Shown in pieces: positions 1,977 through 47,626 of a DNA stretch of 64,000 nt. Position 1 is the stretch's first letter. Every line of letters starts with the position of its first letter. This DNA is from Candidatus Falkowbacteria bacterium. GTDB taxonomy: Bacteria > Patescibacteriota > Patescibacteriia > CAIXNZ01. The notes beneath the pieces are model-generated. The model searched no databases, was not told the origin of the DNA, and saw only the letters and a program-made list of their open reading frames with translations. The stretch spans positions 64,771 to 128,770 of the forward strand of contig CAVZGV010000003.1 in assembly GCA_963774955.1 (NCBI GenBank), read 5' to 3'. Position numbers and translations under genes: made by a program.

Positions 1977-4590
1977 ATGGCTTTTGCTTCCACTCAAAAA
2001 TATTTGCATATTTCCGAATTTCGTAACGACATGGTCATTCTTAAAGACGGTACTTTGAGAATGGTTATTATGTGTTCCAGTGTTAATTTTGCGCTTAAAG
2101 GTGAAGATGAACAAAGCGCTTTGATCGCCGGCTACATGGAATTTTTAAATTCCATGGATTATCCTATCCAGATTGTGATCCAGTCCAGAAAATTAGACAT
2201 TGAAGGCTATATGCGTCGTCTGCAGGAGGCGCAAAAGGCTCAAACCAATGAGTTATTGAAGACACAAATTGACGGCTATCGCGGTTATATCAATCAATTA
2301 ATTGAAATGCAGGAAATAATGACCAAGAAATTTTTTATTGTTATACCATTTAATCCGCTTGGTTCTAAAAATAAGAGTTTTTTTGCCAGGTTAAAGGAGT
2401 CTTTATTCCCGGTCCATCTTATTCGTTTACGGAAAGAAAAATTAGCTGAATACAAGGATGAAATAATGCTTAGAGCTGATAACGTGATGTCTAATTTGAG
2501 ATCAATGGGGCTTGAAGCCGTGGTCTTGGATACTCAGAGCTTAATTGAGCTTTATTATAATGTATATAATCCCAAAACCAGCCAGAATGAGAGATTAAAA
2601 GATGTCAGCCAGATGGGCTTGGAAGCTTAAATATTATTTTGAATTTATTATCTTATGCCATTAGAAATTAATCAACAAACCCAAGGCCCTCAGCCAAAAC
2701 AGCCTAAAGTGACTGCGGCGCAAATGAAAGCCCAGGAATCATCAGCGGCCAAAGGCGAGGCCATTACCTTGGAAGAAGAAAAAATTTATCGCCACGGTGT
2801 GATGGATATCAAGGATTTGATTTCCCCGGCTGCTTTTGAAGTTAAGCCGACTTATTTAATTTTAGGGGATATTTATTGTCCGAACATTTTTTGTTTTGAA
2901 TTATCCTCGCTATATTAATATTGGTTGGTTTACTCCGATTGTTAATTTGAGTAAGACCCTGGATGTGGCGATGTTTTTTTATCCGGTTAAATCAGATATG
3001 ATTTTAAAGCAACTAAAAAAAAGAGTCGGTAATATGGAAGCCCAGCTGATGTCTGATATTGAAAAAGGCGCGCCACGTGATCCGATTTTGGAAACCGGTT
3101 TGCGAGACATTGAAAAATTAAGAGATGATTTGACCCAGGGCATTGAGCAATTTTTTCAATTTGCTCTTTATATCACCATTTATGCCAAAAATATGGAGGA
3201 ACTGGAACAATTCAGCTTCGGAAATTGAATCAATATTTGGCGGTAAATTGATTTATAGTAAAAAAGTTTTTTATCAGGCGGAACAGGGCTTTAATTCTAC
3301 TATTGCCCATGGCCAATGATGAACTGATGATTTCTTTTAATATGAATACTTCGCCGGTGCGCCTCTTCTTTTCCGTTTATTTCTTCAGAATTGACCTCTG
3401 ACAACGGAATTTTATACGGGATTAATCGTCATAATAATAGTTTGATTTTTTTTGACAGATTTTCTTTGCAAAATGCCAATACGGTGGTTTTTGCCACTTC
3501 CGGTGCCGGTAAAAGTTATGCTATTAAATTGGAAGTTTTGCGTAGTTTAATGTTGGGCACTGATGTAATTATTATTGATCCGGAAAGGGAATATAAGCAT
3601 TTGTCTGAAGCTGTCGGCGGAACTTATATTGATATTTCTTTATCTTCAAAAAATAAAATTAATCCTTTTGATTTGCCTCGAGCCATTGGCGATGCCACCA
3701 CCGAAGATATTATCAGAAGCGCGGTTATTACTTTAAAAGGTTTATTGACGTTAATGCTGGGTAAACTGACAATTGAAGAAGATTCAATTTTGGATCGCGC
3801 CTTAATGGAAACTTATGCCAGTAAAGATATTACTCCCCAGTCTGATTTGGCTAAGATTGAAGCGCCGATTATGCAGGATTTGCAGAATATTTTAGACGGC
3901 ATGGAAGGCGCAAGCAATTTAAGCTTGAGGTTGAAAAAATATACCGAAGGTACTTTTTCCGGTTTATTTAACTCAGCCGACCAATGTGGATATGAAAAAT
4001 CAGTTGGTTGTTTTTTCGTCCGAGATTTGGAAGATGAATTACGGCCAATTGCTATTTACAGTATTATTAATTATATCTGGAATGTGGTTCGTTCAGAGAT
4101 TAAAAAAAGAATTTTGGTTATTGATGAAGCCTGGTGGCTGATGACTAGTGAGGATTCGGCTAAATTTATTTATGCTCTGGTTAAACGTTGTCGTAAATAT
4201 TATCTGGGCGTAACCACCATTACTCAGGATGTTAATGATTTTTTAAATAATCCTTATGGCAAGGCAATTGTGACTAATTCTTCATTGCAATTGCTTTTGA
4301 AACAATCTCCGGCTTCAATTGAAAATATCGTTAAAATATTTATGTTGACTGAGGGTGAAAAATATTTGCTTTTGGAATGCGGAGTCGGTGAAGGTATTTT
4401 TTTTGCCGGCCAGAAACATGCCGCTATTAAAATTGTGGCTTCTTATACTGAAGATCAGCTAATTACCAGTGATCCGCATCAACTTTTGGAAATTGAAGCG
4501 TCTAAACGAGAATTTGAACAGAAAAATGCAGCTGGGGAAGAAGCAGGTCAGGCTCCAAAGCGGGAAGGTGTTGAGGAAATAGCAATTTAA
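1977..4590 (+). pseudogene. virB4: VirB4/TrbE/CagE-family type IV secretion ATPase, disrupted into >=5 pieces (1977-2630, 2655-2918, 2896-3228, ~3225-3390 in two further frames, 3391-4590)
   Basis: N-terminal CagE_TrbE_VirB-like domain in 1977-2630; Walker A FATSGAGKSYAIK and Walker B VIDEAWW in 3391-4590; in-frame TAA (2628-2630) and TGA (2640-2642) plus at least three frame changes; summed length about 860 aa as expected for VirB4. Confidence 0.6.
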
Positions 4591-4623
4591 AATTATAACA
4601 GCTAATTACTAATTTTTTAATAT

Positions 4624-5280
4624 ATGGCATTGGCTCAAAATCAGGTCACCTCAAGGAAGAAAAGATCATTACTCTGGATCTTGTTGATTTTATTGTTATT
4701 AATTGCGGCTATTTTGATTTATTTGTATTTATTTTATTTTAAACCAAAACCAGTGACTGAAAATATCAATATTAATCAGAATACCAATCAGACAATTTCA
4801 CCGACTGCGCCGGCAACAACGACTTTCAATAATACAAATGCCAGCGTGTTAACGGATATTCAGGCAGCTACCGGCGGCAATCAGTCCGGTAATCAAAATG
4901 AACAGAATAATGCAATTTTAATAGCCACAGCTTTTACCGAAAGATTTGGCAGTTATTCCAATCAAAGCGATTATCGTAATTTCCAAGAGTTAGATCAGTT
5001 TATGACTGAGACGGTTAAAAAATGGGTCAGTCAGTATATCGAAGGCTTGAAAAAAGATCATGCTGATACCAATGTCTATTATGCTATTGAAACCAAGGCA
5101 ATTTCCACTCAGGTTAACAGTTTTGATGAGACAGCGGGTTTTGCTCAGATCTTAATCAGAACTCAGCGTCAGGAATTTAATAATACGATTACCAATCCCC
5201 AAATAATTTATCAGGATATGCTGTTAGAACTTATTAAAGATAATAATCAATGGAAAGTCAGGGGTGCTTATTGGCAATAA
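4624..5280 (+). CDS. hypothetical membrane-anchored protein (N-terminal TM, Asn/Gln/Thr-rich exterior)
   Basis: ORF track; single N-terminal hydrophobic helix, low-complexity N/Q/T region. Confidence 0.5.
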   Translation: MALAQNQVTSRKKRSLLWILLILLLLIAAILIYLYLFYFKPKPVTENININQNTNQTISPTAPATTTFNNTNASVLTDIQAATGGNQSGNQNEQNNAILIATAFTERFGSYSNQSDYRNFQELDQFMTETVKKWVSQYIEGLKKDHADTNVYYAIETKAISTQVNSFDETAGFAQILIRTQRQEFNNTITNPQIIYQDMLLELIKDNNQWKVRGAYWQ

Positions 5281-5317
5281 AAATAGACAGTGGTAATTAG
5301 TAAATGGTAATTGGTAC

Positions 5318-6052
5318 ATGGAAAATTTTATATTCATTTTAAACAAATTTAAAGATTTTTTTTTAAATTTAATTTTCCCGCAGGCATGCTTTGGTTGTCA
5401 GCAGGAGGGAAGTTATTTATGTTTAAAATGTTTAAATCAGATCGAATTAAATCGGGAATTTTATTGCGCGCTTTGCAAGCAAAAAAGCGACCTTGGCCTG
5501 ATTTGTCGTAATTGCAGGCAGTCTAGTGATTTGCAAGCAATTTGGGTCGCGGCAGATTATAATAATAAAATTTTGCAAGACTTGATTCATGCTTTAAAAT
5601 ATAAATATATCGAAGGTATAAGTGAAGATTTGGCTATCATTGCAGTTAAATATTTGCAGCAAGCGGATATTTTCTGCCATTTCGGAATTAATCAAACAAA
5701 TACTATTATAATTCCGGTACCTTTACATAGAAAACGTTTTTTAGCCAGAGGATTTAATCAGAGTGAATTGATTGCTGATCAAATCGGTAAGATATTAAAA
5801 CTTGATAAAGTAGACTTGCTTAAGCGTATAAAAAACACCGAAACTCAGATTAATTTAAATCGTTTGAAACGTCAAGAAAATGTTAAGGAGGCTTTTAGGC
5901 TAAGTAATTTGAAATTTGATCCAACAAAAAAAGTCATCCTAATAGATGACGTGGTAACCACGGGAAGTACTTTAAAAGAATGCGTCAAAGTTTTATCAGC
6001 AGTCGGTTATACGGAAATTTACGCTTTGGTTATAGCTCAGCGCGAAGATTGA
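5318..6052 (+). CDS. comF: ComF-family protein (double zinc-ribbon + phosphoribosyltransferase domain)
   Basis: N-terminal CxxC..CxxC..CxxC..CxxC, C-terminal PRTase motif VILIDDVVTTGSTL. Confidence 0.8.
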   Translation: MENFIFILNKFKDFFLNLIFPQACFGCQQEGSYLCLKCLNQIELNREFYCALCKQKSDLGLICRNCRQSSDLQAIWVAADYNNKILQDLIHALKYKYIEGISEDLAIIAVKYLQQADIFCHFGINQTNTIIIPVPLHRKRFLARGFNQSELIADQIGKILKLDKVDLLKRIKNTETQINLNRLKRQENVKEAFRLSNLKFDPTKKVILIDDVVTTGSTLKECVKVLSAVGYTEIYALVIAQRED

Positions 6053-6062
6053 TTATTTGGAC

Positions 6063-6079
6063 GGAGAGGGTGAGATTTG
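6063..6079. repeat. 17-nt near-exact duplicate (16/17) of the 3' end of tRNA-Ser(TGA) (6131-6147)
   Basis: ggagagggtgagatttg vs tRNA end ggagagggtgggatttg; separated by hairpin-pair element R2a. Confidence 0.7.
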
Positions 6080-6081
6080 TT

Positions 6082-6108
6082 CCGCAAAGCGGAATCCCGC
6101 TTTGCGGG
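6082..6108. repeat. hairpin-pair repeat R2a (ccgcaaagcgg-aat-cccgctttgcggg)
   Basis: two adjacent GC-rich hairpins; 25/30 identical to 10506-10532. Confidence 0.7.
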
Positions 6109-6129
6109 AAACCCTACGTTCGTGTTATT

Positions 6130-6216
6130 CGGAGAGGGTGGGATTTGAACCCACGGTCCCGTAAACGGGACTCCGGTTTTCAAGACCGGTACATTCAACC
6201 GCTCTGCCACCTCTCC
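6130..6216 (-). tRNA. tRNA-Ser (anticodon TGA), class II with long variable arm
   Basis: cloverleaf: acceptor ggagagg/cctctcc, anticodon loop cuUGAaa, T-loop ttcaaat; close to canonical bacterial tRNA-Ser. Confidence 0.85.
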
Positions 6217-6231
6217 ATAATAGGGACTTCC

Positions 6232-6327
6232 TGGCGGAGAGGGGGAGATTCGAACTCCCGCGCCGACTAAAAACGCCGACCTACAGGTTTAGCAAACCCG
6301 CCCCTTCAGCCTCTTGGGTACCTCTCC
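6232..6327 (-). tRNA. tRNA-Ser (anticodon GCT), CCA encoded
   Basis: acceptor ggagagg/cctctcc+gcca, anticodon loop ttGCTaa, T-loop ttcgaat, long variable arm. Confidence 0.85.
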
Positions 6328-6408
6328 AAAAGCCCTATTATGTCTAATATTTTATCTTAATTTAAAGAAAAAGTCAAACTTAGTACTTAATATTAACAAA
6401 TTAAATAT

Positions 6409-6918: not shown

Positions 6919-6980
6919 AAAATAGTATTATAGGCTATAATAATTGGGGAGATGTTATGTCTCCCTTTTATATTCGTTTT

Positions 6981-7055: not shown

Positions 7056-7067
7056 ACAACCGATTTA

Positions 7068-7139: not shown

Positions 7140-7147
7140 TACGTGGT

Positions 7148-7182: not shown

Positions 7183-7196
7183 TCCTGGTGAGGGCA
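7180..7196. repeat. 17-nt duplicate (16/17) of tRNA-Arg 3' end (7123-7139)
   Basis: gattcctggtgagggca vs gattcctggcgagggca. Confidence 0.7.
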
Positions 7197-11243: not shown

Positions 11244-12583
11244 TTATATAACTTTCTTGATGGCCTGTTCCAGATTTTTTACAGGTACTAATTCTTTTTG
11301 TGAGGGTGCGGTTTTGCCAACCGGTATGATAATTTTCTTAAAGTTTAGTTTCAAGGCCTCTTCGATTCTTTTGTCCAGCTGGTAAACCGGCCGGATTTCA
11401 CCACCCAAGCCGACTTCGCCCAAAATCAGGGTTTGCGGGTCAATAGCTTTGTTTTTTAGGGAAGAAACAATAGCCAGGCAAACTGCCAGGTCAGCGCCGG
11501 TTTCGTTGATTTTAAGGCCCCCAGTGACGTTTAAATGGATATCCTGGTTGAGCAAGGGTACATCAGCCCGTTTAATTAGGACAGCTGCCAGCATTTGCAG
11601 TCGATTCAAATCATAGCCTGAACTTCGTCTTTGCGGGTAGCCAAACATGGTTTTGGTAACCAGCGCCTGGACTTCAATCAAAAACGGCCGACTGCCTTCC
11701 ATAATGCAAGTCAGAGCAGAACCGGAAATAGGCGTCTGATTGATGCGGTAGAAAAAGTTCTGAGGGATTTTTTACTTCCAGCAGGCCGCTTGAGCTCATG
11801 CTGAATATGCCGATTTCCTGGGTTGAGCCAAATCGGTTTTTGGCGCAGCGCAGTGAGCCGAAAATCATCCGAAGTTGAACTTTCCAAATACATGACTGCA
11901 TCAACCAGATGTTCCAGTGATTTGGGACCGGCGACCTGGCCGTCTTTAGTCACATGACCGATGATTAGAATGGCGATATTATATTTTTTGGCTATTTCTA
12001 AAAGTTTAACCGTACAAATCCTGACCTGATTAATTGATCCGGCCTCGGAAGGAAGTTCATTAGAATATAAGGTTTGGATGGAATCAATGATAATTAAACT
12101 TGGTTTTTCTTCGACTGCAAATCCGGTAATTTTTTCAACGTTGTTTTCGGCCAGAAATTTTAATTTGGGAAAATCCAGATTAAGCCGGTCAATTCTCATT
12201 TTTATCTGGGAGGCTGATTCTTCACCGGAAACATAAAGAATGGGGGACTGGAGCTGATGGCAGAGTTGTAAAACCAGGGTTGATTTGCCGATGCCGGGTT
12301 CGCCGCCCAGCAGGATTAAACTGCCGGCGACAATACCGCCGCCCAAGACGCGGTCAAATTCGCCGATCTTAGTTTGCAAACGTTCGAATTTGGGAGTGGC
12401 TGAAGTTTTAAAGTCAATGAGTTGGGATTTATCTACCTTTATAGTTGTCATTTGAATTTTGTCATTTGTCATTTCTTCGGCTATGGTTCCCCAGGCGCTG
12501 CAAGTCGAACAGCGCCCAGTCCACTTGGGATACTGGGCGCCGCATTTTGAGCAAGCGTATATTGTCTGAGGTTGTTTAGACAT
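11244..12583 (-). CDS. radA: DNA repair protein RadA, interrupted by two frameshifts in this sequence (pieces 12583-11711, about 11904-11760, 11702-11244)
   Basis: N-terminal zinc ribbon [18 protein letters not shown], Walker [16 protein letters not shown] motif in a second frame, Lon-like C-terminal domain in a third. Confidence 0.75.
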
Positions 12584-12589
12584 GATGGT

Positions 12590-12782
12590 TATTTATTCAA
12601 CCCCCTCTTTGATTCTCCCCCTAATCATAGGGGGAGAGTGCGGGAATATCGGATTTTCCGTAAACACCCCTCCTTACAAAGGAGGGGATCGGGGGAGGTT
12701 CTCGGATACTTTATCAACTCCCTCCCACCTTCGCTAAAGCTACTGTGGGCTAGCTGTATCTCCCTCTAATCTTAGAGGGAGA
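12590..12782. repeat. GC-rich three-hairpin tail of DUF559 copy 1 (C' 12614-12637, B' 12667-12687, A' 12759-12782)
   Basis: perfect 9-10 bp stems tctccccctaatcatagggggaga, cccctccttacaaaggagggg, tctccctctaatcttagagggaga; homologous to 31851-32011. Confidence 0.75.
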
Positions 12783-13175
12783 TTCCGGAAGTGCAGGCTG
12801 AGTTTTGATTTTACGATCGTTTATTTCCTTACAAAGACAATATAGTTCCTCAACCACTGAATCAATATCTTCAAAGATTTGGTGATTCCAATATCTTTTT
12901 ACAATAATTCCGCAATCTTGTAAATATTTATCCCTGATTTTATCTCTATTAATATTCTTTTGTAGGGTATGAATATCACCGTCTAATTCAATCGCTAATT
13001 TTAATTCAGGGCAATAGAAATCTACTATATAGTATCCAATCCCATATTGCCGACGGAATTTGTATCCTAACTTTTTGTTTCTTAATTCTTTCCAGAGTGT
13101 AACTTCAGCTGGAGTCATTTTTTCCCTTAATATTCTTCTTTTCGTTTTATGCAATTTTAAATTAAACAATTGCAT
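12750..13175 (-). CDS. DUF559 (Vsr/restriction-endonuclease-like fold) domain protein, copy 1
   Basis: 141 aa, signature FRRQY..YIVDFYCPELKLAIELDGDIH; about 65% aa identity to 31458-31889. Confidence 0.75.
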   Translation of the reverse strand: MQLFNLKLHKTKRRILREKMTPAEVTLWKELRNKKLGYKFRRQYGIGYYIVDFYCPELKLAIELDGDIHTLQKNINRDKIRDKYLQDCGIIVKRYWNHQIFEDIDSVVEELYCLCKEINDRKIKTQPALPESPSKIRGRYS

Positions 13176-13263
13176 TTGATTTTTTATTTTGGTTTTAATT
13201 TAGTATCTCTGGGCGCCGCATTTTGAGCAAGCGTATATTGTTTGAGGTTGTTTGGGCATGGGG

Positions 13264-17001: not shown

Positions 17002-18393
17002 TTATGATTGCGGTGCTATTAATAACAGGAATAACGAAATAACAATTACCGGTGAGAGCAGGATCATTAAACAGATTATAAGTAACATCAGGATTATAGC
17101 GTCTAAGATGAGGAAAACAGCAATTTCAGCAATTTCAAAAAGCATCCACATGATTCTATCAGCCTTTTTATCAAAAGAATCATTGCCATCACTTATTTTT
17201 TCAGATTCTCCCGAGCCTCCTGATGTGCCGCCACCTCCTCCGGCAGCACCGCCACCTCCTCCGGCAGCACCGCCAGCTCCTCCGGCAGCGCCTCCAGCAC
17301 CTCCAGCAGCTCCGGCAGCACCGCCAGCTCCTTCGGCAGCTATATTTAGATATTCTTTCCATTCATGACCAAAACGGCAGACATATTTAGAATGTGCAAA
17401 ATATTTAACCAGAAAATGTATATTAATATAGATAATTCCTACGATAGGACCGAGAATTGTTTCCAGGTTAATTATGAGTGCCCAGGCATCACTTAAAAAT
17501 TGAGCTGATACTTTTTGCCCGATCATTATAATTACATCTTGGGCCACTTTCTTGGCAGCTTTAGCTGCTTCTCTGATCTTCATTTGAGAGGCTGCTCTTT
17601 GCATTCTCTGCAAATCTCTTTGCATGGCTTTTTCCGGATCTTCTTCCTGTTCTTTATCCTTGCCTTTATCCTCTGCTCCTTTTTTCTTATCTTTAGATTG
17701 GTCTTCTTCCCCTTGTTTTTCCTGGCCTCCTTGGCCCTGTATTAATTTAGTTTGATCAGACGGACCTGCTTCTTCAGGCGGTTCCGCCCCTGGTCCGGCT
17801 GAGGTTGGCTGCCGTTGCGCTACTCTGAAATCACGCGCTTGTTGATTTTCCTGTTGCTGTTCTTCTGGTTTTTCCGTGTTTTTATCTTGATCCGAGCTTT
17901 GTTGTTCCGGTTCTTTGCCCCCAGTTTGAGTTTGATCAGCAGGTTGCTGGTTACCGGTTTCGGCTTGGTTTTGTTCTGTAGTATTTTTATCTTGATCCGG
18001 ACCTTGTTGTTCCGGTTCTTTGCTCTCAGCTTGAGTTTGATCAGCAGGTTGCTGATTACCAGTTTCAGCTTGCGCATTACCATTAGTGGCCTGGCCTTGG
18101 TTTGCCGATGGAGCTCCTGACTTTTTCGGGGCAGTCATATTACCAGCTTGTTCTTGAGGCCCTGTTTTTTTCCCTTCCGCTTCATTAGCCAGGTTACCAG
18201 GTTCGTCTGGCGATCCTGGTTCTTGTGGTTGGCCATTTTTTCCCTTAGGTTTGCTTTGCGGAGTCTCATCATCATCAAGTTTTTCCGGTTTGGGGATATC
18301 TCCGGATATTTTAACTTGTCTTTTCTGATCACGTAAATTACGGCCCTGATCTTTTTCTTGGTTATTGGCTGGTGAAGTATTTGAATCGACCAT
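17002..18393 (-). CDS. hypothetical membrane protein with long disordered Q/E/K/G-rich N-terminal region, internal 35-aa tandem duplication and Gly/Ala repeat between TM helices
   Basis: 105-bp direct repeat x2 at 17879-18088; GAGGAAGAAGGAGG stretch; C-terminal hydrophobic helices. Confidence 0.5.
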   Translation of the reverse strand: MVDSNTSPANNQEKDQGRNLRDQKRQVKISGDIPKPEKLDDDETPQSKPKGKNGQPQEPGSPDEPGNLANEAEGKKTGPQEQAGNMTAPKKSGAPSANQGQATNGNAQAETGNQQPADQTQAESKEPEQQGPDQDKNTTEQNQAETGNQQPADQTQTGGKEPEQQSSDQDKNTEKPEEQQQENQQARDFRVAQRQPTSAGPGAEPPEEAGPSDQTKLIQGQGGQEKQGEEDQSKDKKKGAEDKGKDKEQEEDPEKAMQRDLQRMQRAASQMKIREAAKAAKKVAQDVIIMIGQKVSAQFLSDAWALIINLETILGPIVGIIYINIHFLVKYFAHSKYVCRFGHEWKEYLNIAAEGAGGAAGAAGGAGGAAGGAGGAAGGGGGAAGGGGGTSGGSGESEKISDGNDSFDKKADRIMWMLFEIAEIAVFLILDAIILMLLIICLMILLSPVIVISLFLLLIAPQS

Positions 18394-25574: not shown

Positions 25575-26213
25575 TCAGAGTTCCTTCTGGCCTCGAATTT
25601 CTTCTCTTTCGAGGTATAACTCTTTTAGTTTTTGCCGCAGCTTTTCATTATTAATATTTCTGCCTTTTAAGCGACGGGTAAGCTTGGCAATTATTTGATT
25701 GACTCGTCCGCCGGAAATATCAAATTTTCGTCCGATTTCCTCGTATGAATATTCCCGGTGCTCCGGATTTAATCCGAATTTGAGTCTTATCATTTCTTCT
25801 TCTTTCGGCGAAAATTGAGCAATTGACTGCTCAATGGTTTCCAGAAGTTCTGTTTCCACTATCTCCAGATACGGTTCTGAAACAGTAGGCAAGCATTTGA
25901 GCCTTGATATGTCTGTGGCACTCAGTTCATGCAGAGACAATTCAATCGCTCTTTTAGGAGATTCAAGCTGATAGAGCTTCAGGGGAAAAAGTAGGTCAAT
26001 ATTAATTTTGAGAATTTCTGACAACCTGACGCAAAACGGCAGCCAGTTGCCTCGTTTGCCAATGGGTGATTTTTTCAGGTTGATCAAATCTCCAATATAG
26101 GTCATATGCAGGCCGCATTGCCGGCTAAAGGCGGCAATTGAAGCGTAGTTATCATAAATAGCATGATAAAGAACATTATTTCGGACTCTGATTTCCACTC
26201 GTACTTCTTCCAT
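25575..26213 (-). CDS. sigma-70 region 3/4-containing HTH protein (no recognisable region 2)
   Basis: SYEEIGRKFDISGGRVNQIIAKLTRRLK region-4 HTH. Confidence 0.5.
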   Translation of the reverse strand: MEEVRVEIRVRNNVLYHAIYDNYASIAAFSRQCGLHMTYIGDLINLKKSPIGKRGNWLPFCVRLSEILKINIDLLFPLKLYQLESPKRAIELSLHELSATDISRLKCLPTVSEPYLEIVETELLETIEQSIAQFSPKEEEMIRLKFGLNPEHREYSYEEIGRKFDISGGRVNQIIAKLTRRLKGRNINNEKLRQKLKELYLEREEIRGQKEL

Positions 26214-26354: not shown

Positions 26355-28208
26355 CTATGGCTTGTCGCTGAGCAGTTGCTCCAGTTGTTTCAGTTGCTCA
26401 GGAGTCAGGTTGTCCAGCCGTCGTTTGACTTCTTCGTTGTCTGTGTTGGTTTCGGCTTCTGCTTGCGCCGGTACGGTGATAGCATCGCTGGCTTGCTGAA
26501 TTTCGGATTTGGTAAATTCCACATCCGGCAGGTCAAAGCTTGCCATCTGGATAATGCCTTCGTTTGTTTCCAGGTAGGTAATCTTGGCTTGGTCATTGTC
26601 GCGGGCAATAGCCAGTTCTTCGGAGATTTTACTGGTACCGGAAAAAAGCTTGTCAGGCATTTGGTCCAGCCAAACGTAGTATATGGTTACTCCGTTTTGG
26701 CTGTCAGCTGCGATGCGTTTAATTTTGCCTTCAGCTTTTTTTACGTACTTTTCATTACTGGGAGCCATGGTATTGCCGTTGGAAGCCAGTAGCTTGCGAT
26801 ACTCGGCCAGTAATTCCGTTTTGTCCTGTCCGAATGCAACTCGTGAAGACGAGGCTTCGACCATGGCAATGCGCTGGAAAACATGCTGGTCCGAAAGAAT
26901 CGGTACCACCCAGGTAAGGGTGCCGTAAATGTTATAAAGGATTGGATCAGTCGGATGCCATTTGGCAGATTCTGCGCCTAAACCGCTGGAAACAGCCTGG
27001 ATTACCGCTGTTTCATTGGCGCCGTTGATGCGGTAGAAATATGATTTGGCGTTGCGAGAGTTGATCATCAGAAATCCGACCAAGGCGTTATCGCTGGCAG
27101 AAGATGAGGTCATGCCGGTAAACCAGTATGGCTGGCCGTCATTACCGTAGACTAGCCACATATCCAGTTTGCCTGCGACTTCTGTGGGAATCATCACATC
27201 CTGTTCCGACCAGATTGAATTCCACCAGCCGCGGGTGTATTTGCCCCGCCACTTGGCATACGAAAAAGCGATTTTCTGAGGGATGATTCGATCCACCCAG
27301 ACAGGAGCTTCTTCTGGTTTGTATTTTTCAATCTCTCCGGTTTCCGCGTTGACCAGAATTACTCCGGTAACCTTGTCGCCGGTGTAATGATGGATTAGGT
27401 CGTATTTGGTGATGACCCAATAAGGGTTCAATTCATCATCAACTTCAAAGGTAAAATCGGTCAGGCCGGTAAACTGGTAACCTTTGGCATAGACATAACG
27501 TCTGAGGTTGTCGCTAAACCAGCCGGTGGTGACATATTTCAATTTGCGCTGTTCAATCCTGACGGGTCGGTTGCGATCCTCGGCATTGACCATGATAAAA
27601 CCATAGGTTTCCCCATAGCTTTGCCAGGAGGCAAAACCATTGAATTCCAGGGGAGCAACCCACCACAGTTCGTCTTTGACGCGCTGGATATGGAGTGTGC
27701 CCACATGGAAACGGCTGCCGATATTGCCGGGGATTTTGCCGATGTCCTGATTGCCCAACCATTCGGCGTGTTCCTGGTCAATGATCCTGATGTGCTTGGT
27801 ATCAATCGGCTGAAAATCATCCTGCCAGGATTTATCTTCCACCTTGCCGATCATATCCCGCAGATTGACTGACTGGAACATACCCATGGAAAGGATACCC
27901 CGGATCAAAACCAGAACCAGCAGAACCACGAAAAGATAAGTGCCGCCGGGAAGCTCCTCCGAGGTTATCCCGGTGATTAATAGATTGATACTCATGGTCA
28001 GCAAAATCATGAAACTCAGACCCCAGAACGGTCCATAAAGACCGGGGCAGACGGCATAAACAATGCCTACCCATAAGATCAGGGCTACAACTGAACGGAT
28101 GATCCAACCCAAAAGCCATTTGCCATGACCGTCTTCTTTCAGTTGATTGAAATTGGGGTTAAACCCGCCGACGACGCTGACGATAAAAGCCACCCAAAGA
28201 TAACTCAT
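26355..28208 (-). CDS. hypothetical large membrane protein (N-terminal polytopic region + about 450-aa soluble domain); codon usage more GC-rich than neighbours
   Basis: 617-aa intact ORF, 4-5 N-terminal TM helices. Confidence 0.55.
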   Translation of the reverse strand: MSYLWVAFIVSVVGGFNPNFNQLKEDGHGKWLLGWIIRSVVALILWVGIVYAVCPGLYGPFWGLSFMILLTMSINLLITGITSEELPGGTYLFVVLLVLVLIRGILSMGMFQSVNLRDMIGKVEDKSWQDDFQPIDTKHIRIIDQEHAEWLGNQDIGKIPGNIGSRFHVGTLHIQRVKDELWWVAPLEFNGFASWQSYGETYGFIMVNAEDRNRPVRIEQRKLKYVTTGWFSDNLRRYVYAKGYQFTGLTDFTFEVDDELNPYWVITKYDLIHHYTGDKVTGVILVNAETGEIEKYKPEEAPVWVDRIIPQKIAFSYAKWRGKYTRGWWNSIWSEQDVMIPTEVAGKLDMWLVYGNDGQPYWFTGMTSSSASDNALVGFLMINSRNAKSYFYRINGANETAVIQAVSSGLGAESAKWHPTDPILYNIYGTLTWVVPILSDQHVFQRIAMVEASSSRVAFGQDKTELLAEYRKLLASNGNTMAPSNEKYVKKAEGKIKRIAADSQNGVTIYYVWLDQMPDKLFSGTSKISEELAIARDNDQAKITYLETNEGIIQMASFDLPDVEFTKSEIQQASDAITVPAQAEAETNTDNEEVKRRLDNLTPEQLKQLEQLLSDKP

Positions 28209-28684
28209 TTTCTTTACTCCTTTTCTTCTGTTTTTGAGGTACGTTTTTGTACTAAAAAGTACAAATAGCCATAAAAATTTACGACACCTTAGTATATAAT
28301 TTTAAAAGATTTTTGTCAATAAAAAAGACGACCTGCTATTTTGGGTCGTCTAGGTAAAACATCACTGAGATTTTTCAGGATTTGAATTCAAAATGGAATT
28401 AGAGTTTTTATCCTTGCGGATTAGGATAAGACTAAAAGCAAAGGGAGTTTGTCTTTTAGATTATCCATCGGGACGGCTGATTGTTACATATCCAGGCCAT
28501 TGGCCTTGGTCTTGTAAACTGATCAACCAAACTCTTGGAACAAGCATTTGGCAATGCCTGATCCTCTTAACCCGACGTTGGTTTTTATAGCCAGAAACCA
28601 GCATTCTTGTCTGACTATTTTGAGATAACTCAATTAAAAACCAACAATTTTAGTAATAATAACTTATCATATTATTGAATTTTT

Positions 28685-29128
28685 GTCAAGATTAATAAAA
28701 AAGCGGTCAGACAGGGTCTGACCGCGTAATGGTTTGGTTCGGATTCCGGGAGGCGCTGGGCGTCTTCCGCTTATAAGGCCAATTGGTCTTACTGGAATCC
28801 GATTTTTAAAGCGACCAGTGCCGCTTTAAATACAATATTAAGTGTTTCTGGGCGTCTCAAAAGCCAAGATGCTTGAGGATACGGCTAAAAGCGGATTTGC
28901 GCAAACCCACTCAAGCTTCTCCATCGGGCAGAGCAATCTTTCCTGATCGGAGGCAAATATCCTTAGAAAAGATTGCCAACACTTGGCCAGCGCTTCCTCG
29001 AGGCGGGGCTGCCTACCCCAAGCGCCAACCTTCAAACCCGACGTCAGATCCGGAGGCCGAACATTTGCCTCACTTACGCGACCGCATTTACGGCAGTCCA
29101 TGACCTGACAATTTAAATTTCGATTATG
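28685..29128 (-). ncRNA. candidate structured ncRNA of about 440 nt, unidentified class
   Basis: minus-strand sigma70 promoter TTGACA-17-TAATAT (plus coords 29134-29162), GC-rich body, intrinsic terminator gcggtcagaccctgtctgaccgc+TTTTTT at 28688-28716; only short, GC-codon-biased ORFs inside. Confidence 0.5.
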
Positions 29129-29133
29129 CTGCC

Positions 29134-29162
29134 ATATTAGCAAAAATAATAGGTAATGTCAA
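29134..29162 (-). promoter_or_regulatory. sigma70-type promoter (TTGACA, 17-nt spacer, TAATAT) driving the candidate ncRNA
   Basis: revcomp of 29157-29162 = TTGACA; revcomp of 29134-29139 = TAATAT. Confidence 0.6.
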
Positions 29163-29231
29163 TGGTTTGCCTTTTATTTTATTTTGAGATAAAATTAGAG
29201 TATTCAATTTATTATTTAACTTTTCAATACA

Positions 29232-30339
29232 ATGATTACAACTGTATTAATTTTTCTGATTGTTTTAGGTATTTTAGTGCTGGTTCACGAACTGGGACAT
29301 TTTTGCACTGCCAAATTAATGGGCATGAAGATTTACGAATTTGGTATCGGCTTTCCACCGAAAATCTGGAGCAAAAAGGGTAAAGACGGGGTGATTTACT
29401 CGATTAATTCTATACCTTTGGGCGGTTTTGTTAATTTAAGGGAAACAGAATCAGAGGCTTCTGATCCCAATAGTTTTATCAATAAGAAACCATGGAAAAG
29501 GGCCGTCGTTATTTTAGCCGGCGTAGCCATGAATTTTTTATTATGCGTTGTTTTGCTTTCATTTGGTTTTATGTTTGGCCTACCGCAGTCAGTGGATCAG
29601 GATGCGCTTAATTCCGGAATTGTAAAAGATTATAAAATTCAGGTGGTGACTGTTTTAGATGATAAACCAGCCAAAACTGCAGGAGTTGAAATCGGCGATG
29701 TGCTGCTGGCTGTTGATGACCAGAAATATTGCCAGTGTTAAGGATTTGGTTGTGTATACCAGTACTAAAATAGGGACGAAAGTTAATTTTAAATTTTTGC
29801 ATGAAAAAGAGGAAGTAACCAAGGAAATTGAAATTGCAGAATTGGAAAAAGGCAAGGGCGGTATTGGTGTTGGCTTGGTGGAAACCGGGATTGTTTCTTA
29901 TCCGGTTCATTTGGCTGTTTGGCACGGTGTGAAATTAACTTTGGCGCTAACTAAGGAATTTATTTTTGCTTTTGCCAATATTATAAAGAATTTAGTCATT
30001 GGCCAGCCAATCGGCGTCCAGGTTTCCGGTCCGGTCGGTATTGCGGTTTTAACCGGTCAGGTAGCCAAATTGGGTATAATTTATTTACTGCAATTTACGG
30101 CTTTACTCTCATTAAATTTGGCGATTATCAATGCGATACCGTTTCCGGCTTTTGACGGCGGTCATTTAGTCTTTATTATAATTGAAAAAATTCGCCGCAA
30201 GCCTGTTGATAAGAAAATTGAGGGTATAATTCATACTATTGGGTTTTCTTTGTTAATGCTATTGATTATTGTTATTACTTTTCAGGATATTTTAAGGTAT
30301 AGTCATTTTTTTAGTAATTTTTTCAGTAATTTGATTTAA
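29232..30339 (+). CDS. rseP: RseP-like site-2 protease (M50), interrupted by one frameshift near 29710-29740
   Basis: HELGHFCTAK HExxH, PDZ segment, C-terminal NLAIINAIPFPAFDGGH; two overlapping ORFs in frames 0 and 1 rejoin as ...VLLAVDDQK|IASVKDLVVY. Confidence 0.75.
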
Positions 30340-30409
30340 ACGGCTTAGTGCTATAGGGCTTTGAGCTTAGAGCTTTATGCCCAAAGTTTATAGCTTATAG
30401 CAAAAAAAT

Positions 30410-31450
30410 ATGGAATTAAAATTCAAAGAACTCAAAGAGCAGGCCTTGAAGGAGATTCAGGCGATTCGCAATTCGGAAGAGTGGCAGCAGATTGAGAATA
30501 AGTATTTTTCCAGAAAAAGCGGGGAATTGGCCAAGCTTTTGAAAGATCTCAAGGATGTTTCCGAGGATTTGCGTCCGAAAATTGGCGCGGTTGCCAATGA
30601 AATAAAAAATGAAATCAGTAAGGCTTTGGAACAAAAAAAAGTCAGATTTGAATTTGGATATTGATGAGGATTTGGAACATGATTTTATTGATGTAACTTT
30701 AGAAATTGAAAAATATAAGCTTGGTCATTTGCATCCTTTGACTCAGGTGCAAATGGAACTGGAAGATATTTTTAAATCCATGGGTTTTATGATTTTGGAC
30801 GGTCCGGAGCTGGAATCGGATTATTATAATTTTGAAGCTTTAAATCTTCCGTCTTGGCATCCGGCTCGTGATATGCAGGATACTTTTTATATTGATCCCA
30901 AGACTGTGAACGGCACGGAAAATTTGCTTATGCGCACTCAAACTTCACCGGTACAAGTGCGGGCAATGCAAAAATATGGCGCGCCTTTGCGTTGTGTGAT
31001 GCCCGGCCGTTGTTTTCGTAATGAAGCCACTGATGTGCGTCATGAACATACTTTTTATCAGATGGAAGGCTTGATGATTGATAAAAATATTTCTTTTAAT
31101 GATATGTGCGGTGTTTTTGGAAACAGTGGCTAAAGAATTATACGGAGATGACACTAAATTAAGATTGCGACCAAAATATTATCCTTTTGTGGAGCCGGGT
31201 GTTAACGGAGAAGTGACTTGTTTTTTGTGCCATGGCAAAGGTTGTAAATTATGCAAACAGACCGGCTGGCTGGAAATCGTCGGCGCGGGCATGGTTCATC
31301 CCAATGTTTTGAAAGCCGGCAATGTTGACCCCAATAAATATCAGGGTTTTGCTTTTGGTTTTGGCTTAACCGGTTGGTGATGCTGAAATACAATATTGAC
31401 GATGCCAGGTTATTGCAGAGTGGGGATTTACGTTTCTTAAACCAATTTTA
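30410..31450 (+). CDS. pheS: phenylalanine--tRNA ligase alpha subunit, interrupted by three single-nt frameshifts (about 30640, about 31100, about 31378)
   Basis: class II motifs across four frames: N-terminal helix, [28 protein letters not shown]-terminal [20 protein letters not shown]. Confidence 0.8.
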
Positions 31451-31457
31451 GATTATA

Positions 31458-31889
31458 ATGCAGTTGTATAATATAAAAGTGCATAAAGAGAAAAGAAGGA
31501 TTTTAAGAAACACAATGACACCCGCTGAAGTTGCGCTTTGGGTAGAATTGAAAAATGAAAAATTAGGATATAAATTTCGACGACAATATGGAGTCGGTCA
31601 CTATATAATTGATTTTTATTGTCCTCAACTTAAATTCGCCATTGAATTGGATGGCGATGTTCATGCCATTGATAGTGTTCATAAAAAAGATCTGATTAGG
31701 GATAAATTTTTGGAAGAATGCGGGATTACCATGAAAAGATTTTGGAATCACGAGATATTTGAGGATATAAATTCAGTTTTGGAGGTGATAGTTAATCTTT
31801 GTCAACAAAAAACCGATTGTAATTCTAAGGTACAGCCGTCTCATCCGGAGTCTCCCTCTAAGATTAGAGGGAGATACAGAGGGAGTTGA
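31458..31889 (+). CDS. DUF559 (Vsr/restriction-endonuclease-like fold) domain protein, copy 2, inserted between pheS and pheT
   Basis: 143 aa; FRRQY..YIIDFYCPQLKFAIELDGDVH; paralog of 12750-13175 in inverted orientation. Confidence 0.75.
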   Translation: MQLYNIKVHKEKRRILRNTMTPAEVALWVELKNEKLGYKFRRQYGVGHYIIDFYCPQLKFAIELDGDVHAIDSVHKKDLIRDKFLEECGITMKRFWNHEIFEDINSVLEVIVNLCQQKTDCNSKVQPSHPESPSKIRGRYRGS

Positions 31890-32030
31890 TCGGGTAACCC
31901 GAATTCCCCGAATACCCCGAGAACCTCCCCCGAACCCCTCCTTTGTAAGGAGGGGAGATTGCGGGGAATGCCGTGACCACTAAGGATTCTCCCCCTTAGA
32001 CAAGGGGGAGACAAAGAGGGGGGGGTAAAT
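31851..32030. repeat. GC-rich three-hairpin tail of DUF559 copy 2 (A 31851-31874, B 31935-31955, C 31988-32011)
   Basis: A tctccctctaagattagagggaga overlaps ORF 3' end (encodes SPSKIRGRY); B identical to copy-1 B'; spacers also conserved. Confidence 0.75.
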
Positions 32031-32093
32031 TTTGACCGTTAACGACTTTCGTAATTTTCAAACGATTATCGCGAAAATTAATAATATTTTTAT

Positions 32094-39593: not shown

Positions 39594-39617
39594 TTTTTTA
39601 ACGGTAATTAATATAAG

Positions 39618-39650
39618 GGCGAGGAGAAATCTTCGCCCTTTTTTAAATGG
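39618..39650 (+). terminator. intrinsic terminator gggcgaggagaaatcttcgccc+TTTTTT (near-identical copy at 40356-40390)
   Basis: read directly. Confidence 0.7.
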
Positions 39651-39741: not shown

Positions 39742-40344
39742 ATGTACAGATATTCGGAAAAGAAAAATTCAAATTGGTTGCTGGTGTTGGCCATTTTTAT
39801 GGCGTTGCCGCTTGTTGTCCTTACTGCCGCCCGTTTTTACCAGCAGTACATGTTCAAAATTGAATGCACTGGCCATCTGAAGCGGGCGGCTGACGCCAAT
39901 GTCATCCGTCTGGCGAGTCAGGAAATGGACACAGCAATCCGCTATCTGGAAAAGAATGAGATGACCAGCGGTTATACTTCAGTGATAATTCAGACACCGG
40001 ATGAGGATGTGGGCTTCTGGTATCAGAATCTCAAGGCATCTGCGGAAGAGCTGGTTAATATTTCTTCGGAGGCAACGCAGCTGGAAAGCAGCAATGTGTT
40101 GATGAAATTGAGGGAAACTTTGTTGGATGAAGGACAAATCACTAAGGTTACTGTTCCCAGTGGCGTGGCTATATTTCCACATAATAAGGCCTATGCCCTT
40201 TTTACAGCCTTGGCAGCTCTGATGTTTGTTGGTGCCGCCATCCTGTATTTGCATAATTCCAAACAAAGTTTTACTTTGATTGAATTGATGATAGTGATCT
40301 CAATCGTCGGGATACTTATCACCTTGGCTTACCAGTATGCCTAG
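39742..40344 (+). CDS. hypothetical membrane protein whose last 25 aa reproduce a prepilin-type N-terminal motif (FTLIELMIVISIVGIL) without the cleavage-site Gly
   Basis: N-terminal TM, soluble domain, second TM, then pilin-like hydrophobic segment ending at the stop. Confidence 0.45.
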   Translation: MYRYSEKKNSNWLLVLAIFMALPLVVLTAARFYQQYMFKIECTGHLKRAADANVIRLASQEMDTAIRYLEKNEMTSGYTSVIIQTPDEDVGFWYQNLKASAEELVNISSEATQLESSNVLMKLRETLLDEGQITKVTVPSGVAIFPHNKAYALFTALAALMFVGAAILYLHNSKQSFTLIELMIVISIVGILITLAYQYA

Positions 40345-40355
40345 ATAAATAATAG

Positions 40356-40390
40356 GGGCGAGGAGAAATCCTCGCCCTTTTTTAATTTAT
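40356..40390 (+). terminator. intrinsic terminator ggggcgaggagaaatcctcgccc+TTTTTT
   Basis: duplicate of 39618-39650. Confidence 0.7.
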
Positions 40391-41859: not shown

Positions 41860-42136
41860 GTTGTTAGATTTTGGGGTAGTTACTGCTTAATTTTATCAAA
41901 ATACCTTAATTTTCGCAAAAATTAGAAGTTTTTCTTGATTTTTTTTGTTAAAAATGATATCTTTTTATTGTAAATTAGCCTTAATTTATGAATGGAAAAT
42001 CAGGAGTTTCATTACATATTAACGGCCGGGTGCAGGGCGTTTTTTTCCGTTTAAAAAGGCCACAAATATACAAATTTTTACAAATGATTACAAATTTGTA
42101 GTAATTTGTATTTGATTCGTATATTTGTAACAATCT

Positions 42137-43642: not shown

Positions 43643-43757
43643 ACTAAGATTTAAAAACTAAAATGTAAGAGCTTTAACTAAAAAATTTATAACTGATTAG
43701 TTTTTAGTTCTAAGATCGAGTTCTTAGTTCTAACATCTAAGTTTTGAGTTATGTATT

Positions 43758-44840
43758 ATGCCTAAAGTCGCTATCAATTTGGTCACCTGGAACGGAGAAA
43801 AACAGATTGAATACTGTCTGAATTCTATCCTGGAACAAAAATTTCAGGACTTTTTGCTGTTGATTATTGATAATGGCTCTGTTGACAAGACTGTCGATAT
43901 AATTGAAACTGAGTATTTGCCCGCCTTTAAGGATAAAATAAAATTTGTTAAAAATAAAAGTAATCTGGGCTTTGCCTTTGCGCATAATCAGGCGATCTTA
44001 TGGACTGATTCGGATTATGTTTTAGTCCTCAATCAGGACGTAATTTTAGAGCCGGATTTTTTGGCTAAAGCAACAGAATTCATGGATGGTCATCATGACG
44101 TCGGCTCAATCAGCGGTAAGATATTACGTTGGGAATATCGGCAAATGGAAGACTTGAAAAAATGCGAAAAAACTGATATTATTGACTCACTGGGACTTAA
44201 AATTTTTAAAAGCCAGAGAGTGGTTGATCGTGGTTCCGGGGAAAAGGATTCGGCGCCTACCTCCGCTTTAACTGAGGCAAAAGCTTCGATGGACAAGTCG
44301 GCCGGCAGGCAATATGAAAATATTACGGAAATTTTTGGTGTTTCAGCAACTTGCCCGATTTACCGTCGTCAGGCCTTGCAGGATATCCGCTACGAAGATG
44401 AATTTTTCGATATAGATTTTTTTAGCTATAAAGAGGATGTTGATCTGGCTTATCGCCTTGCTTGGCGCGGTTGGAAAAGTTATTTTTTACCGGAGGTTAT
44501 TGCTTATCATGAAAGAGCCGCTAAGGGGCAGGAAAAAATTTCTCATTTGGCTTTAATTCGTCATCGTAAAGATAAATCAAAATTTGTTAATTATCACTCT
44601 TATAAAAACCATCGTTTCATTTTATTAAAGAATTTGAGTGGCCGCAACTTTTGGCGCTATTTTTTCCCGATTTGCTGGTTCGAATTTAAAAAATTTATTT
44701 ATTTGTTATTTGTAGAATTTTCTACCTTGAAAGCTATCGGTGAATTTAGGGCTAAGCGTAAGAAAATGAAAATTAAACGCCGTTTTATAATGTCGCGTCG
44801 GTTGATTAAAGACGATGAGATGAGAAAATGGTATTCGTGA
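43758..44840 (+). CDS. family 2 glycosyltransferase
   Basis: INLVTWNGEKQIEYCLNSI...LLIIDNGSVD GT2 N-terminal fold. Confidence 0.75.
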   Translation: MPKVAINLVTWNGEKQIEYCLNSILEQKFQDFLLLIIDNGSVDKTVDIIETEYLPAFKDKIKFVKNKSNLGFAFAHNQAILWTDSDYVLVLNQDVILEPDFLAKATEFMDGHHDVGSISGKILRWEYRQMEDLKKCEKTDIIDSLGLKIFKSQRVVDRGSGEKDSAPTSALTEAKASMDKSAGRQYENITEIFGVSATCPIYRRQALQDIRYEDEFFDIDFFSYKEDVDLAYRLAWRGWKSYFLPEVIAYHERAAKGQEKISHLALIRHRKDKSKFVNYHSYKNHRFILLKNLSGRNFWRYFFPICWFEFKKFIYLLFVEFSTLKAIGEFRAKRKKMKIKRRFIMSRRLIKDDEMRKWYS

Positions 44841-44941
44841 TAATAACCAATAATCAATAATCAAATTCCAAATAAATTCAAAATTACAATAATAAAAGCT
44901 AAAATTAGTTTGGAATTTTACATTTAGATATTTGTTATTGT

Positions 44942-45808
44942 TTGGTTGTTGGATCTTGGTTATTGTTTATTTCTAACATTATGGATTTATCAATTATAAT
45001 TTTAAATTACAAAACTCGGGGGCTGGTTAAGTATTGCCTGAAAAATGCCATTAATACGGTTAAGAATTTAAATTACGAAATTATTGTTGTTGATAACGGC
45101 TCTAATGACGGGATTGAGAAGATGCTGGCTGATGATTTTTCGCAGGTCAGATTTTTTCAAACCGGAAAAAATAAGGGCTTTGCCACCGGCTATAATGTCG
45201 GTATCAGACAAGCACAAGGTAAATATATTCTTATTTTAACGGCTGATGTCACGGTTTTAGACGGCTCAATTGAAAAAATGGTGGAGTTTATGGAAAAAAA
45301 TCCGACGACTGGTTTGGCCGGTCCGAAAATTATTAATCCGGATGGGAGTTATCAGATTACCTGCCGCACTTTTCAGACACCTGAAATTATTTTATATCGA
45401 CGGACACCCTTGGGTTATTTTTCATTTGCCAAAAAAGAATTAGACAAACATTTATTGTCAAATTTTGACCGTCAGACAAGCAGGGAAGTTGACTGGGTTA
45501 TGGGCGCCTGTATGATTGTCAGGAAATCAGCTTTAGACCAGGTCGGGTTATTTGATGAAAGATTCTTTTTCTATGTCGAGGACATGGATTGGTGTCGTCG
45601 CTTTTGGGCCAGCGGTTATAAAGTCAATTATATAGCTGATGCGGTCGTGATCCATTTATACGAAAAAGCCTCTGATCACGGCATCTGGAATTTTTGGAAA
45701 TTGGACAAAATGGCGCGCTGGCATATGGTTTCCGGCATTAAATATTTTCTTAAATATTTAGGACAAAAAAATCATGGAACAGTATCAAACCCCGCCACAA
45801 CCAAATAA
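44942..45808 (+). CDS. family 2 glycosyltransferase
   Basis: LSIIILNYKTRGLVKYCL...EIIVVDNGSNDG. Confidence 0.75.
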   Translation: MVVGSWLLFISNIMDLSIIILNYKTRGLVKYCLKNAINTVKNLNYEIIVVDNGSNDGIEKMLADDFSQVRFFQTGKNKGFATGYNVGIRQAQGKYILILTADVTVLDGSIEKMVEFMEKNPTTGLAGPKIINPDGSYQITCRTFQTPEIILYRRTPLGYFSFAKKELDKHLLSNFDRQTSREVDWVMGACMIVRKSALDQVGLFDERFFFYVEDMDWCRRFWASGYKVNYIADAVVIHLYEKASDHGIWNFWKLDKMARWHMVSGIKYFLKYLGQKNHGTVSNPATTK

Positions 45809-47626
45809 TATCAACCTGCCTTCACCCGACTATACTCAAATCAGAGAAAAACCGAGAAAATCTTTAGCTAAGATTATTATCTGGGGTGCTGTTAAAATTT
45901 TAGCCTTAATTTTGGTATTGATTTTGATTTTTGGGGGAGCGATCGGTTTGATTTATTACGATAATATTAAACAAGCCTATAGTTTGTCCTTTTCGGCTAA
46001 GGCTGATTTGGAAAATACGGCTCATCAGATAATTAACCGTGATTTTAAAACTGCGGTTGAATCAATCAAGAGCGCTAACTCTAAATTTTTACAGGCTCAG
46101 AATTATCTCAATCAGGTGGTAATTGTGCGCCAGATTCCCTATATTGGCCTGCAGATTACGGGCGGTTGATAATGTTTTGGTCGCAGCTATAAAATTAACA
46201 GACAGCGGTCAGCAGGTTGTGTTATTGATTGACGATATAACAGCGCCTTTGAAAAATGAATCTATTTCCTATGCCAGTTTGAGTCCTGAACAAAAAAGGC
46301 AGATTTTGGAAAAAGTAGTCGCTTCTGAAAGCATGTTGCTGGAAGTTCAGATCCAAATTGATGAAGCTGACCTGGCGATTTCTACCATACCTTCAGAGAA
46401 ATTAGTTAAACCGCTGAGAGACGGAATTGCCCCGATTCAGCAATATTTGCCTAGAATGAAATTGCTTATTGATAATGCGTTGCCATTATTGAGATTAGTT
46501 CCCAAAATTGCCGCCTTTGATGAACCAAAATCATATTTATTCTTGTTGCAAAATAATTCAGAATTACGGCCTACAGGAGGTTTTATCGGGACTTATGGAA
46601 TATTAAAATTGCAGGATGGCGATATTAAAGAATTTGCCACAGATAATATCTATAATCTGGACCGTTCGACTCAAAAAATTGTGGCCGAACCTTCACCCTG
46701 GCCGATTGTTAAATATTTGGAACAGAAAGATTGGTCTTTACGCGATATTAATTGGGCGCCTGATTTCCCAACCACAGCGCAAAAGGCCTTAGATATGTAT
46801 GACAAGGAAAATAAGGTCTGGCTGGATTTGAAAAAATCAGGTCAGAAAATCTTGGGTGAAAAAGGCATAGAAATTACCGATGTTTTGCCCTACCAGGAAA
46901 ATTTATCAGGTGTCATTGCGGTTACGCCGGAGATTTTGGGTGAACTTTTGGGATTAACTGGTCCGATCGTTACTGATAATATGCTGTTTACCGCTGAGAA
47001 TTATCAGGATCAGCTGGAATTAATGGTGGGTAAAATGTATCAGGAATTAAATATTCCAGTTAACCAAAGAAAAGAAATTATCAGAAAATTGGCTGATCAG
47101 ATTAAATTTAAATTAACGACATTGCCTTTGAGCCAGTTGCCAGCCTTAATTGATATGGGTTTTAAAGCGATGGATCAGAAACAAGTTCAAATTTATGTCC
47201 AAGACGTTGATTTGGAAAAATTAATATTGGAGCGCGGTTGGGGTGGAGAAATCAAAGAAACTGACGCTGATTATCTGATGGTCGTAGATAGCAATCTGGC
47301 CAGTTTAAAAACAGATCAGTATGTCAAGAGAACTATTAATTATTCAGTTTATTGGACAAGGCGATGATTTAATTGGCAAGACTGAAATTACTTATCAAAA
47401 TAATGCTGATTTTACCTGGAAGTCAACCCGCTTAAGAACTTATACTCGGGTTTATGTACCTTTGGGAAGTGAATTAATCAGTTCAGCCGGCGCCATGGAA
47501 AATGATAAAATTAAAGATCCTCAATTACAGGCCGGTCAGGTAGAGGCAGCCACTGAATTTGGTAAAACTTTTTTTGGCGCTTTTATTTCCATTGAACCGC
47601 ATGAAACGAGGTGTTTTAAGCTTTGA
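45774..47626 (+). CDS. hypothetical N-terminally TM-anchored about 620-aa protein (possibly DUF4012-like), interrupted by two frameshifts (about 46160, about 47340)
   Basis: three consecutive overlapping ORFs in frames 0,1,2 joining as ...GLQITGG|VDNVLVAA... and ...YSVYWT|... Confidence 0.5.

Follow-up and report, generated by a model that had tools for sequence, protein, structure and literature searches.

Eighteen clustered one-base indels in five conserved genes of a Patescibacteria contig and their probable origin in the deposited consensus

Five genes in a 64,000-nt stretch of a Patescibacteria genome (the window) have broken reading frames: a virB4-like P-loop ATPase gene, radA, rseP, pheS and a DUF4012 gene. 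The question raised by this locus is whether these genes are decaying in the organism or were broken only in the deposited sequence. The window is a gene-dense segment of roughly 40% GC, assigned to the candidate phyla radiation (CPR) and Parcubacteria-like, and is part of a 565,549-nt Patescibacteria contig (NCBI and ENA). The closest public relative is a metagenome-assembled genome from Lac Pavin sediment (GCA_026395755.1), at ~90% nucleotide identity. The 18 one-base insertions and deletions (indels) that interrupt the five genes are very probably errors in the deposited consensus and not in the organism's DNA.

Number, kind and placement of the indels

Frame changes were first displayed by three-frame translation. 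The indels were placed with a frameshift-tolerant protein-to-DNA aligner (banded dynamic programming), together with nucleotide alignments to syntenic loci of relatives, namely L001/L002 (rseP-pheS-pheT), L003 (DUF4012 neighbourhood), L004 and L005/L006 (virB4 neighbourhood) and L007 (radA). Orthologue sets were gathered for PheS, VirB4, DUF4012 and RadA. Frameshift-aware and nucleotide alignment together placed 18 one-base indels in the five genes, 16 of them extra bases and two of them missing bases (binomial P = 0.0007 against 1:1). No indel is longer than 1 nt, and none of the genes carries a nonsense substitution. All 18 events are held in four patches of 0.1–1.6 kb, which are spaced 8–18 kb apart and together span ~4.4 kb (Table 1).

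Table 1. Interrupted genes, indel patches and neighbouring features, in window coordinates.
Feature	Position	Strand	Remarks
TraC-like gene	1977-2630	+	217 aa, intact, separate from virB4
virB4-like P-loop ATPase gene	2655-4590	+	643 aa repaired, intein-free
Indel patch 1	2876-4017	+	virB4-like gene, 6 indels in 1.14 kb
radA	11244-12583	-	445 aa repaired
radA patch	11742-11854	-	2 extra bases
DUF559 insertion in 5' end of radA	12585-13260	-	includes 52-nt duplicate of radA start
rseP	29232-30339	+	368 aa repaired; extra base 29725-29727 (AAATATT)
Indel patch 3	29727-31371	+	rseP and pheS, 4 indels in 1.64 kb
pheS	30410-31450	+	346 aa repaired
DUF559 insertion in pheS-pheT spacer	31451-32093	+	second copy, 66% aa identity to first
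DUF4012 gene	45774-47858	+	692 aa repaired
DUF4012 patch	46155-47686	+	6 extra bases
Densest stretch	47607-47686	+	four extra bases in 80 nt, near DUF4012 3' end

Applied with the same relatives to 16 neighbouring control genes (16,077 nt), the same aligner found 0 events, and every remaining open reading frame (ORF) with a Pfam match covers its profile in full. This bears out the claim of an earlier note on this DNA that frameshifts are clustered in five genes while the other coding sequence is intact; the clustering is stronger than that note described. When 18 events were scattered randomly over the 55 kb of coding sequence, none of 200,000 simulations affected as few as eight genes; the minimum was nine and the mean 15, against the five observed. 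Neighbouring events are separated by a median of 259 nt, compared with ~2,430 nt expected. The clustering is real and is more positional than gene-wise, one patch running from rseP into the adjacent pheS. What looked like a deletion in the gene for a 288-aa glycosyltransferase was rejected as a nucleotide-alignment artefact at the divergent 5' end, the protein aligner finding no event at 87% identity.

The virB4-like gene contains extra bases at 2876, 3217, 3302, 3356 and 3975 and lacks a base at 4017/4018. The pair at 3975 and 4017 is compensating and is concealed within a 399-aa ORF. Alignment to L005/L006 gives six indels for this gene, where the earlier note counted four. In radA the two extra bases lie, on the gene strand, within 11854–11860 (CGGCTCA) and within 11739–11745 (CATCAAT). 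The pheS gene has an extra A in an A8 run at 30633–30640, an extra T in GGTGTTTTTGG at 31112–31117 and a missing base at 31371/31372. The extra bases of the DUF4012 gene are at 46155, 47356, 47607, 47640, 47677 and 47686. This gene had been described as ending at 47626 and having two shifts; its true 3' end is at 47858, and it has six indels.

Many of the extra bases stand outside homopolymers, for example GG[A]CA at 47356, CT[G]CA at 47640, TC[A]GC at 3975 and CT[A]TT at 3302. Of the 17 A/T runs of at least 8 nt in the window, a single one carries an indel, and within the virB4 patch itself both an A8 (3015–3022) and a T8 (3446–3453) are correct. Natural replication slippage is a poor fit for these reasons, and the emphasis that had been placed on homopolymers is not sustained. 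The A8 run in pheS had rightly been picked out as carrying an indel, its coordinates being 30633–30640 and not 30636–30643. A T6 run near 11768, also proposed as a shift site, is in frame (11766–11771) and has an in-frame counterpart (A5) in L007. No common motif was found by k-mer enrichment around the sites, which fails multiple-testing correction, and the sequence contexts are heterogeneous. CTGCA(G) adjoins two to three of the sites, and two of the ten CTGCAG hexamers in the window, at 46149 and 47638, stand beside DUF4012 extra bases. Errors linked to a methylation motif at CTGCAG were considered and set aside, the association not being significant after correction for the k-mers tested.

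The interrupted genes after repair and the insertions beside them

All 18 sites are read through in every relative examined, at ~77–90% nucleotide identity. The loci L001/L002, L003, L005/L006 and L007 are intact at the corresponding sites. The virB4 genes of L005 and L006, at ~90% nucleotide identity to that of the window, keep their frame, and both contigs end ~150 nt beyond the last virB4 indel. RadA of L007 is 91% identical at the amino acid level and is likewise encoded in an intact frame.

Deleting the 16 extra bases and adding the two missing ones yields five single ORFs. The repaired RseP, PheS, RadA and DUF4012 proteins have the lengths of their orthologues (368 aa in L001, 346 aa, 445 aa in L007 and 692 aa in P0167, respectively). 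For the 643-aa repaired VirB4, which shares 92% amino acid identity with its closest relative, the comparison of length is limited to one partial and one intein-stripped orthologue. Selection on the repaired genes is normal. Their ratios of nonsynonymous to synonymous substitution rates (dN/dS, Nei-Gojobori) against relatives are 0.056–0.088, within the range of 0.014–0.113 given by 12 valid control genes. The ratio is the same within and beyond the patches, for example 0.068 inside and 0.066 outside in virB4. At alignment columns that are at least 97% conserved among 120 homologues, repaired PheS shows no private deviation and the repaired DUF4012 protein shows one.

Upstream of virB4 stands a separate TraC-like gene, and its orthologues in L004 (232 aa) and L005 (217 aa, 93% amino acid identity) are likewise genes of their own. 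PF26593 is precomputed for the orthologues in L004 and L005; our own Pfam scan of the ORF in the window gave only a weak, sub-threshold match to TraC_F_IV. The two in-frame stops that had been attributed to virB4 are explained by the stop codon of this TraC-like gene and the 24-nt spacer that follows it, virB4 itself starting at 2655. An alternative genetic code was considered for these stops and rejected, as they fall in the intergenic spacer.

Of the 46 best VirB4 homologues, 44 (~1,200–1,300 aa) have their Walker A motif interrupted by an intein that includes a LAGLIDADG homing endonuclease; in P0126 this intein is ~660 aa long. The insertion point corresponds to window position ~3513/3514 in the virB4 P-loop (GAGK|S), and is empty both in the window and in the closest relative, L005/L006.

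Two copies of a DUF559 unit are found in the window, one at radA and one at pheS (Table 1). The element on the radA side, ~0.62 kb long, combines a DUF559 endonuclease gene (Vsr-like, PD-(D/E)XK) at 12750–13175 with a palindromic tail that is rich in GC. On either side of it lies one copy of a 52-nt duplication, 94% identical, of the first 17 radA codons (12533–12584 and 13209–13260). The upstream copy (MPKQPQ...) is equivalent to the native start in L007 and now terminates at a stop. The downstream copy (MSKQPQ...) is joined to the body of radA, and the insertion therefore regenerates an intact radA start. None of the ten closest loci with RadA (at least 51% identity) has this element; the L007 contig, one of them, begins only 27 nt upstream of radA. 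The copy on the pheS side has the same 53-nt tail motif as well as TCTCCC...GGGAGA hairpins, and the pheS-pheT spacer that it occupies measures just 41 nt in L001/L002. A DUF559 homologue with 70% amino acid identity to the radA-side copy and with the same tail is found at the same pheS-pheT position in a JGI contig (L028, 2034–2711). Both insertions are missing from most relatives. Judged by these sequence features, the DUF559 unit looks like a small, site-specific mobile element.

Origin of the indels

A consensus artefact is favoured because every indel is of a single base, mostly an extra one, the repaired lengths match those of orthologues, dN/dS is normal and the relatives are intact. 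We infer both this technical origin and the technical step responsible for it. The contig would be accurate over most of its length, with four patches in which the consensus was drawn from poorly supported or error-prone data. These could be stretches that were bridged or gap-filled by a handful of long reads, or stretches in which polishing with short reads failed as a result of low coverage or strain variation. Stray single bases, mostly extra, would have stayed in the patches and caused gene callers to split virB4, radA, rseP, pheS and the DUF4012 gene. Bridged, gap-filled or unpolished stretches are suggested because the errors are confined to patches 8–18 kb apart. The earlier note had offered local consensus error, from low coverage or strain mixture, and genuine pseudogenisation as the likely explanations. 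The former is supported indirectly, by the type of indel, the repair, dN/dS and the relatives; the evidence speaks against pseudogenisation.

Some circumstantial evidence comes from contigs assembled from short reads, either of the same strain or of close relatives (L005 and L006 among them), which terminate near patch borders. For example, a contig from run ERR12035938 (Logan; same or very close strain) encodes a protein identical to that of a 617-aa ORF in the window and ends ~70 nt before the rseP indel. In addition, three of the patches adjoin or span sites that vary between genomes, namely the virB4 intein site and the two DUF559 insertions. The source record enters fragments of pheS, rseP, radA and the DUF4012 gene as proteins in their own right (P0441, P0452, P0453, P0189). 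The broken fragments in the protein collection come only from this record, that is, from one contig; the virB4 fragment was looked up in the same collection and was not found.

A precedent exists in long-read and hybrid assemblies, for which one-base indels that fragment genes are a known failure mode (PMC12007338; bioRxiv 10.1101/2020.03.12.974238). As in those assemblies, conserved genes are cut into neighbouring ORFs by one-base indels while the orthologues are intact, removal of the indels restores full-length genes, and the fragments are annotated as separate coding sequences. The distribution and spectrum are different: here, four short patches with extra bases prevailing 16:2 are set in clean sequence, whereas the published Nanopore errors are genome-wide, dominated by deletions and linked to homopolymers (PMC12007338).

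Several points weigh against a technical origin. The only contig of the same strain that was found (Logan, ERR12035938) stops short of the first rseP site, and no independent same-strain assembly covers any of the 18 sites; exact look-ups for such a contig with pheT, PrgI-like, MreB, MPG and a 414-aa fragment gave no match, and no paper on this run was found in the literature. In exact look-ups with nine plausible repaired or fragment sequences, a set that did not include repaired DUF4012, the repaired RseP, PheS and RadA (two versions each) and VirB4 (one version) were absent from the protein collection. A variable-gap DNA pattern laid out across the A8 run of pheS had 0 matches in the genome and metagenome contig collections. 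The patches show few or no substitution errors, which is somewhat unexpected for a gap filled from raw long reads. An excess of extra bases outside homopolymers is closer to the errors of low-depth PacBio continuous long reads (CLR). It is at odds with what has been described for Nanopore assemblies, where deletions dominate and the errors are tied to homopolymers (PMC12007338).

The DUF559 repeats, which had been put forward as a local cause, do not explain the patches: both DUF559 ORFs are intact, and the virB4 and DUF4012 patches have no DUF559 copy nearby. Multi-mapping of reads at these repeats is a weak candidate for the source of error on the same grounds.

If the indels were instead real, the organism or its dominant clone could have lost virB4, radA, rseP, pheS and the DUF4012 gene by recent frameshifts. 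The deposited ORFs do lack continuous frames, the CPR lifestyle is one of dependence on a host with a reduced genome, an ATPase of the type IV secretion-like kind could in principle be dispensed with, and the window contains one apparently real gene remnant, that of an acylphosphatase (41988–42056). Such recent pseudogenes are nevertheless unlikely. With up to six one-base indels in a gene, dN/dS is not raised and conserved residues are kept, and gradual pseudogenisation is a poor fit because as many as six shifts per gene have accumulated here without unconstrained substitutions, nonsense codons or deletions of mixed length. The 16:2 excess of extra bases is opposite to the deletion bias of bacterial pseudogenes, in which Mira, Ochman and Moran reportedly found in 2001 that mainly deletions accumulate. 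The pseudogenes of reductive evolution, as in Mycobacterium leprae and insect endosymbionts, are similar in that conserved genes are frameshifted in a small, host-dependent genome. They differ from the present case, where there is no relaxed selection, no substitution at conserved sites, no longer indel and no deletion bias, and where the essential pheS is affected, with no second copy found within the window. The lesions also cluster by position and not by gene, in patches smaller than a gene of which one extends across rseP and pheS, and a positional cause fits this better than gene-by-gene loss. Even for virB4, for which pseudogenisation had been considered plausible, the evidence opposes it, the repaired gene having a dN/dS of 0.068 and encoding a protein of 92% amino acid identity to its closest relative despite six indels.

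Real indels might also be tolerated if the genes were expressed by +1 ribosomal frameshifting or transcriptional slippage, for which prfB, the frequent +1 shifting of Euplotes and the poly(A) slippage of insect endosymbionts are precedents. The present sites resemble these systems in their strong +1 bias (16 of 18 sites would require a +1 shift) and in one site being the A8 run at 30633–30640, a type of run at which RNA polymerase slippage is known. They differ in having no conserved slippery motif, none being common to the sites after multiple-testing correction, and no conservation in orthologues at ~77–90% nucleotide identity. The 0-frame stop is 3–7 codons downstream and not at the site, two sites require the opposite shift, and with up to six sites in a gene, six shifts per mRNA would leave almost no full-length product. 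Tolerated frameshifting is accordingly extremely improbable. Slightly more room, although very little, is left for the idea that real indels mark error-prone DNA synthesis during repair next to the cut sites of mobile endonucleases, captured while the population was nearly clonal. The cut sites would be those of the two DUF559 elements, at radA and at pheS, and the site in virB4 to which the intein homes. In yeast, break repair is known to be mutagenic, and three of the four patches lie within ~0.1–0.7 kb of, or span, a site at which a mobile element is present or absent across genomes. However, no such element lies close to the DUF4012 patch, pheS is intact in L028 with the same DUF559 element next to it, a pheS knockout would be lethal, and the known mark of break repair, chiefly -1 frameshifts within homopolymers, is the reverse of the pattern found here. 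Put more broadly, and just as improbably, the extra bases would be real products of a localised, insertion-biased mutagenesis, of which such repair synthesis is one example, and the loss of essential genes would be made good by a further copy elsewhere or by the host.

If the indels are consensus errors, they amount to a quality warning, in that the gene fragments would spread into protein databases, completeness estimates and metabolic reconstructions. A possible result is the false claim that this CPR bacterium has no PheS or no RadA. The corrected coordinates and the 18 sites permit direct repair. Genuine lesions would have made this a striking case, a free-standing genome that has lost pheS, but that reading is not supported by the evidence.

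Other features of the window

Several further features are present elsewhere in the window, some of them differences from related loci. The segment 25575–29231, between the Asp/Glu racemase gene and rseP, is extra compared with L001. It begins with a gene for a sigma-70 region-4 protein (25575–26213), followed by the 617-aa ORF (26355–28208), which has no Pfam match and is absent from L001 at this interval, and by ~1 kb (28209–29231) with no convincing ORF or Rfam match.

The acylphosphatase gene at 41988–42056 is reduced to its first ~23 codons, which are 74% identical to the start of a 92-aa gene in L003, and the 501-aa glycosyltransferase ORF that comes after it leaves no space for the whole gene. 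This stub is probably the remnant of a genuine deletion. Between mreB and holB, L003 has a gene for a 783-aa trypsin-like protease (L003 7995–10346), whereas the corresponding interval of the window (48937–49421) contains just an 88-aa ORF (49027–49293).

Two terminator-like 34-mers, 94% identical (39613–39646 and 40352–40385), flank a 200-aa ORF at 39742–40344. The sole strong Pfam match of this ORF is an N-terminal methylation (pilin) motif, which is located at its C-terminal end (residues 173–197). Finally, a 463-aa ORF on the minus strand, with no Pfam match, contains low-complexity tandem repeats at 17202–17340 and 17876–18072. These comprise a GC-rich tandem repeat with units of 9–21 nt and a 105-nt repeat in which two aligned copies of 92 nt are 89% identical.

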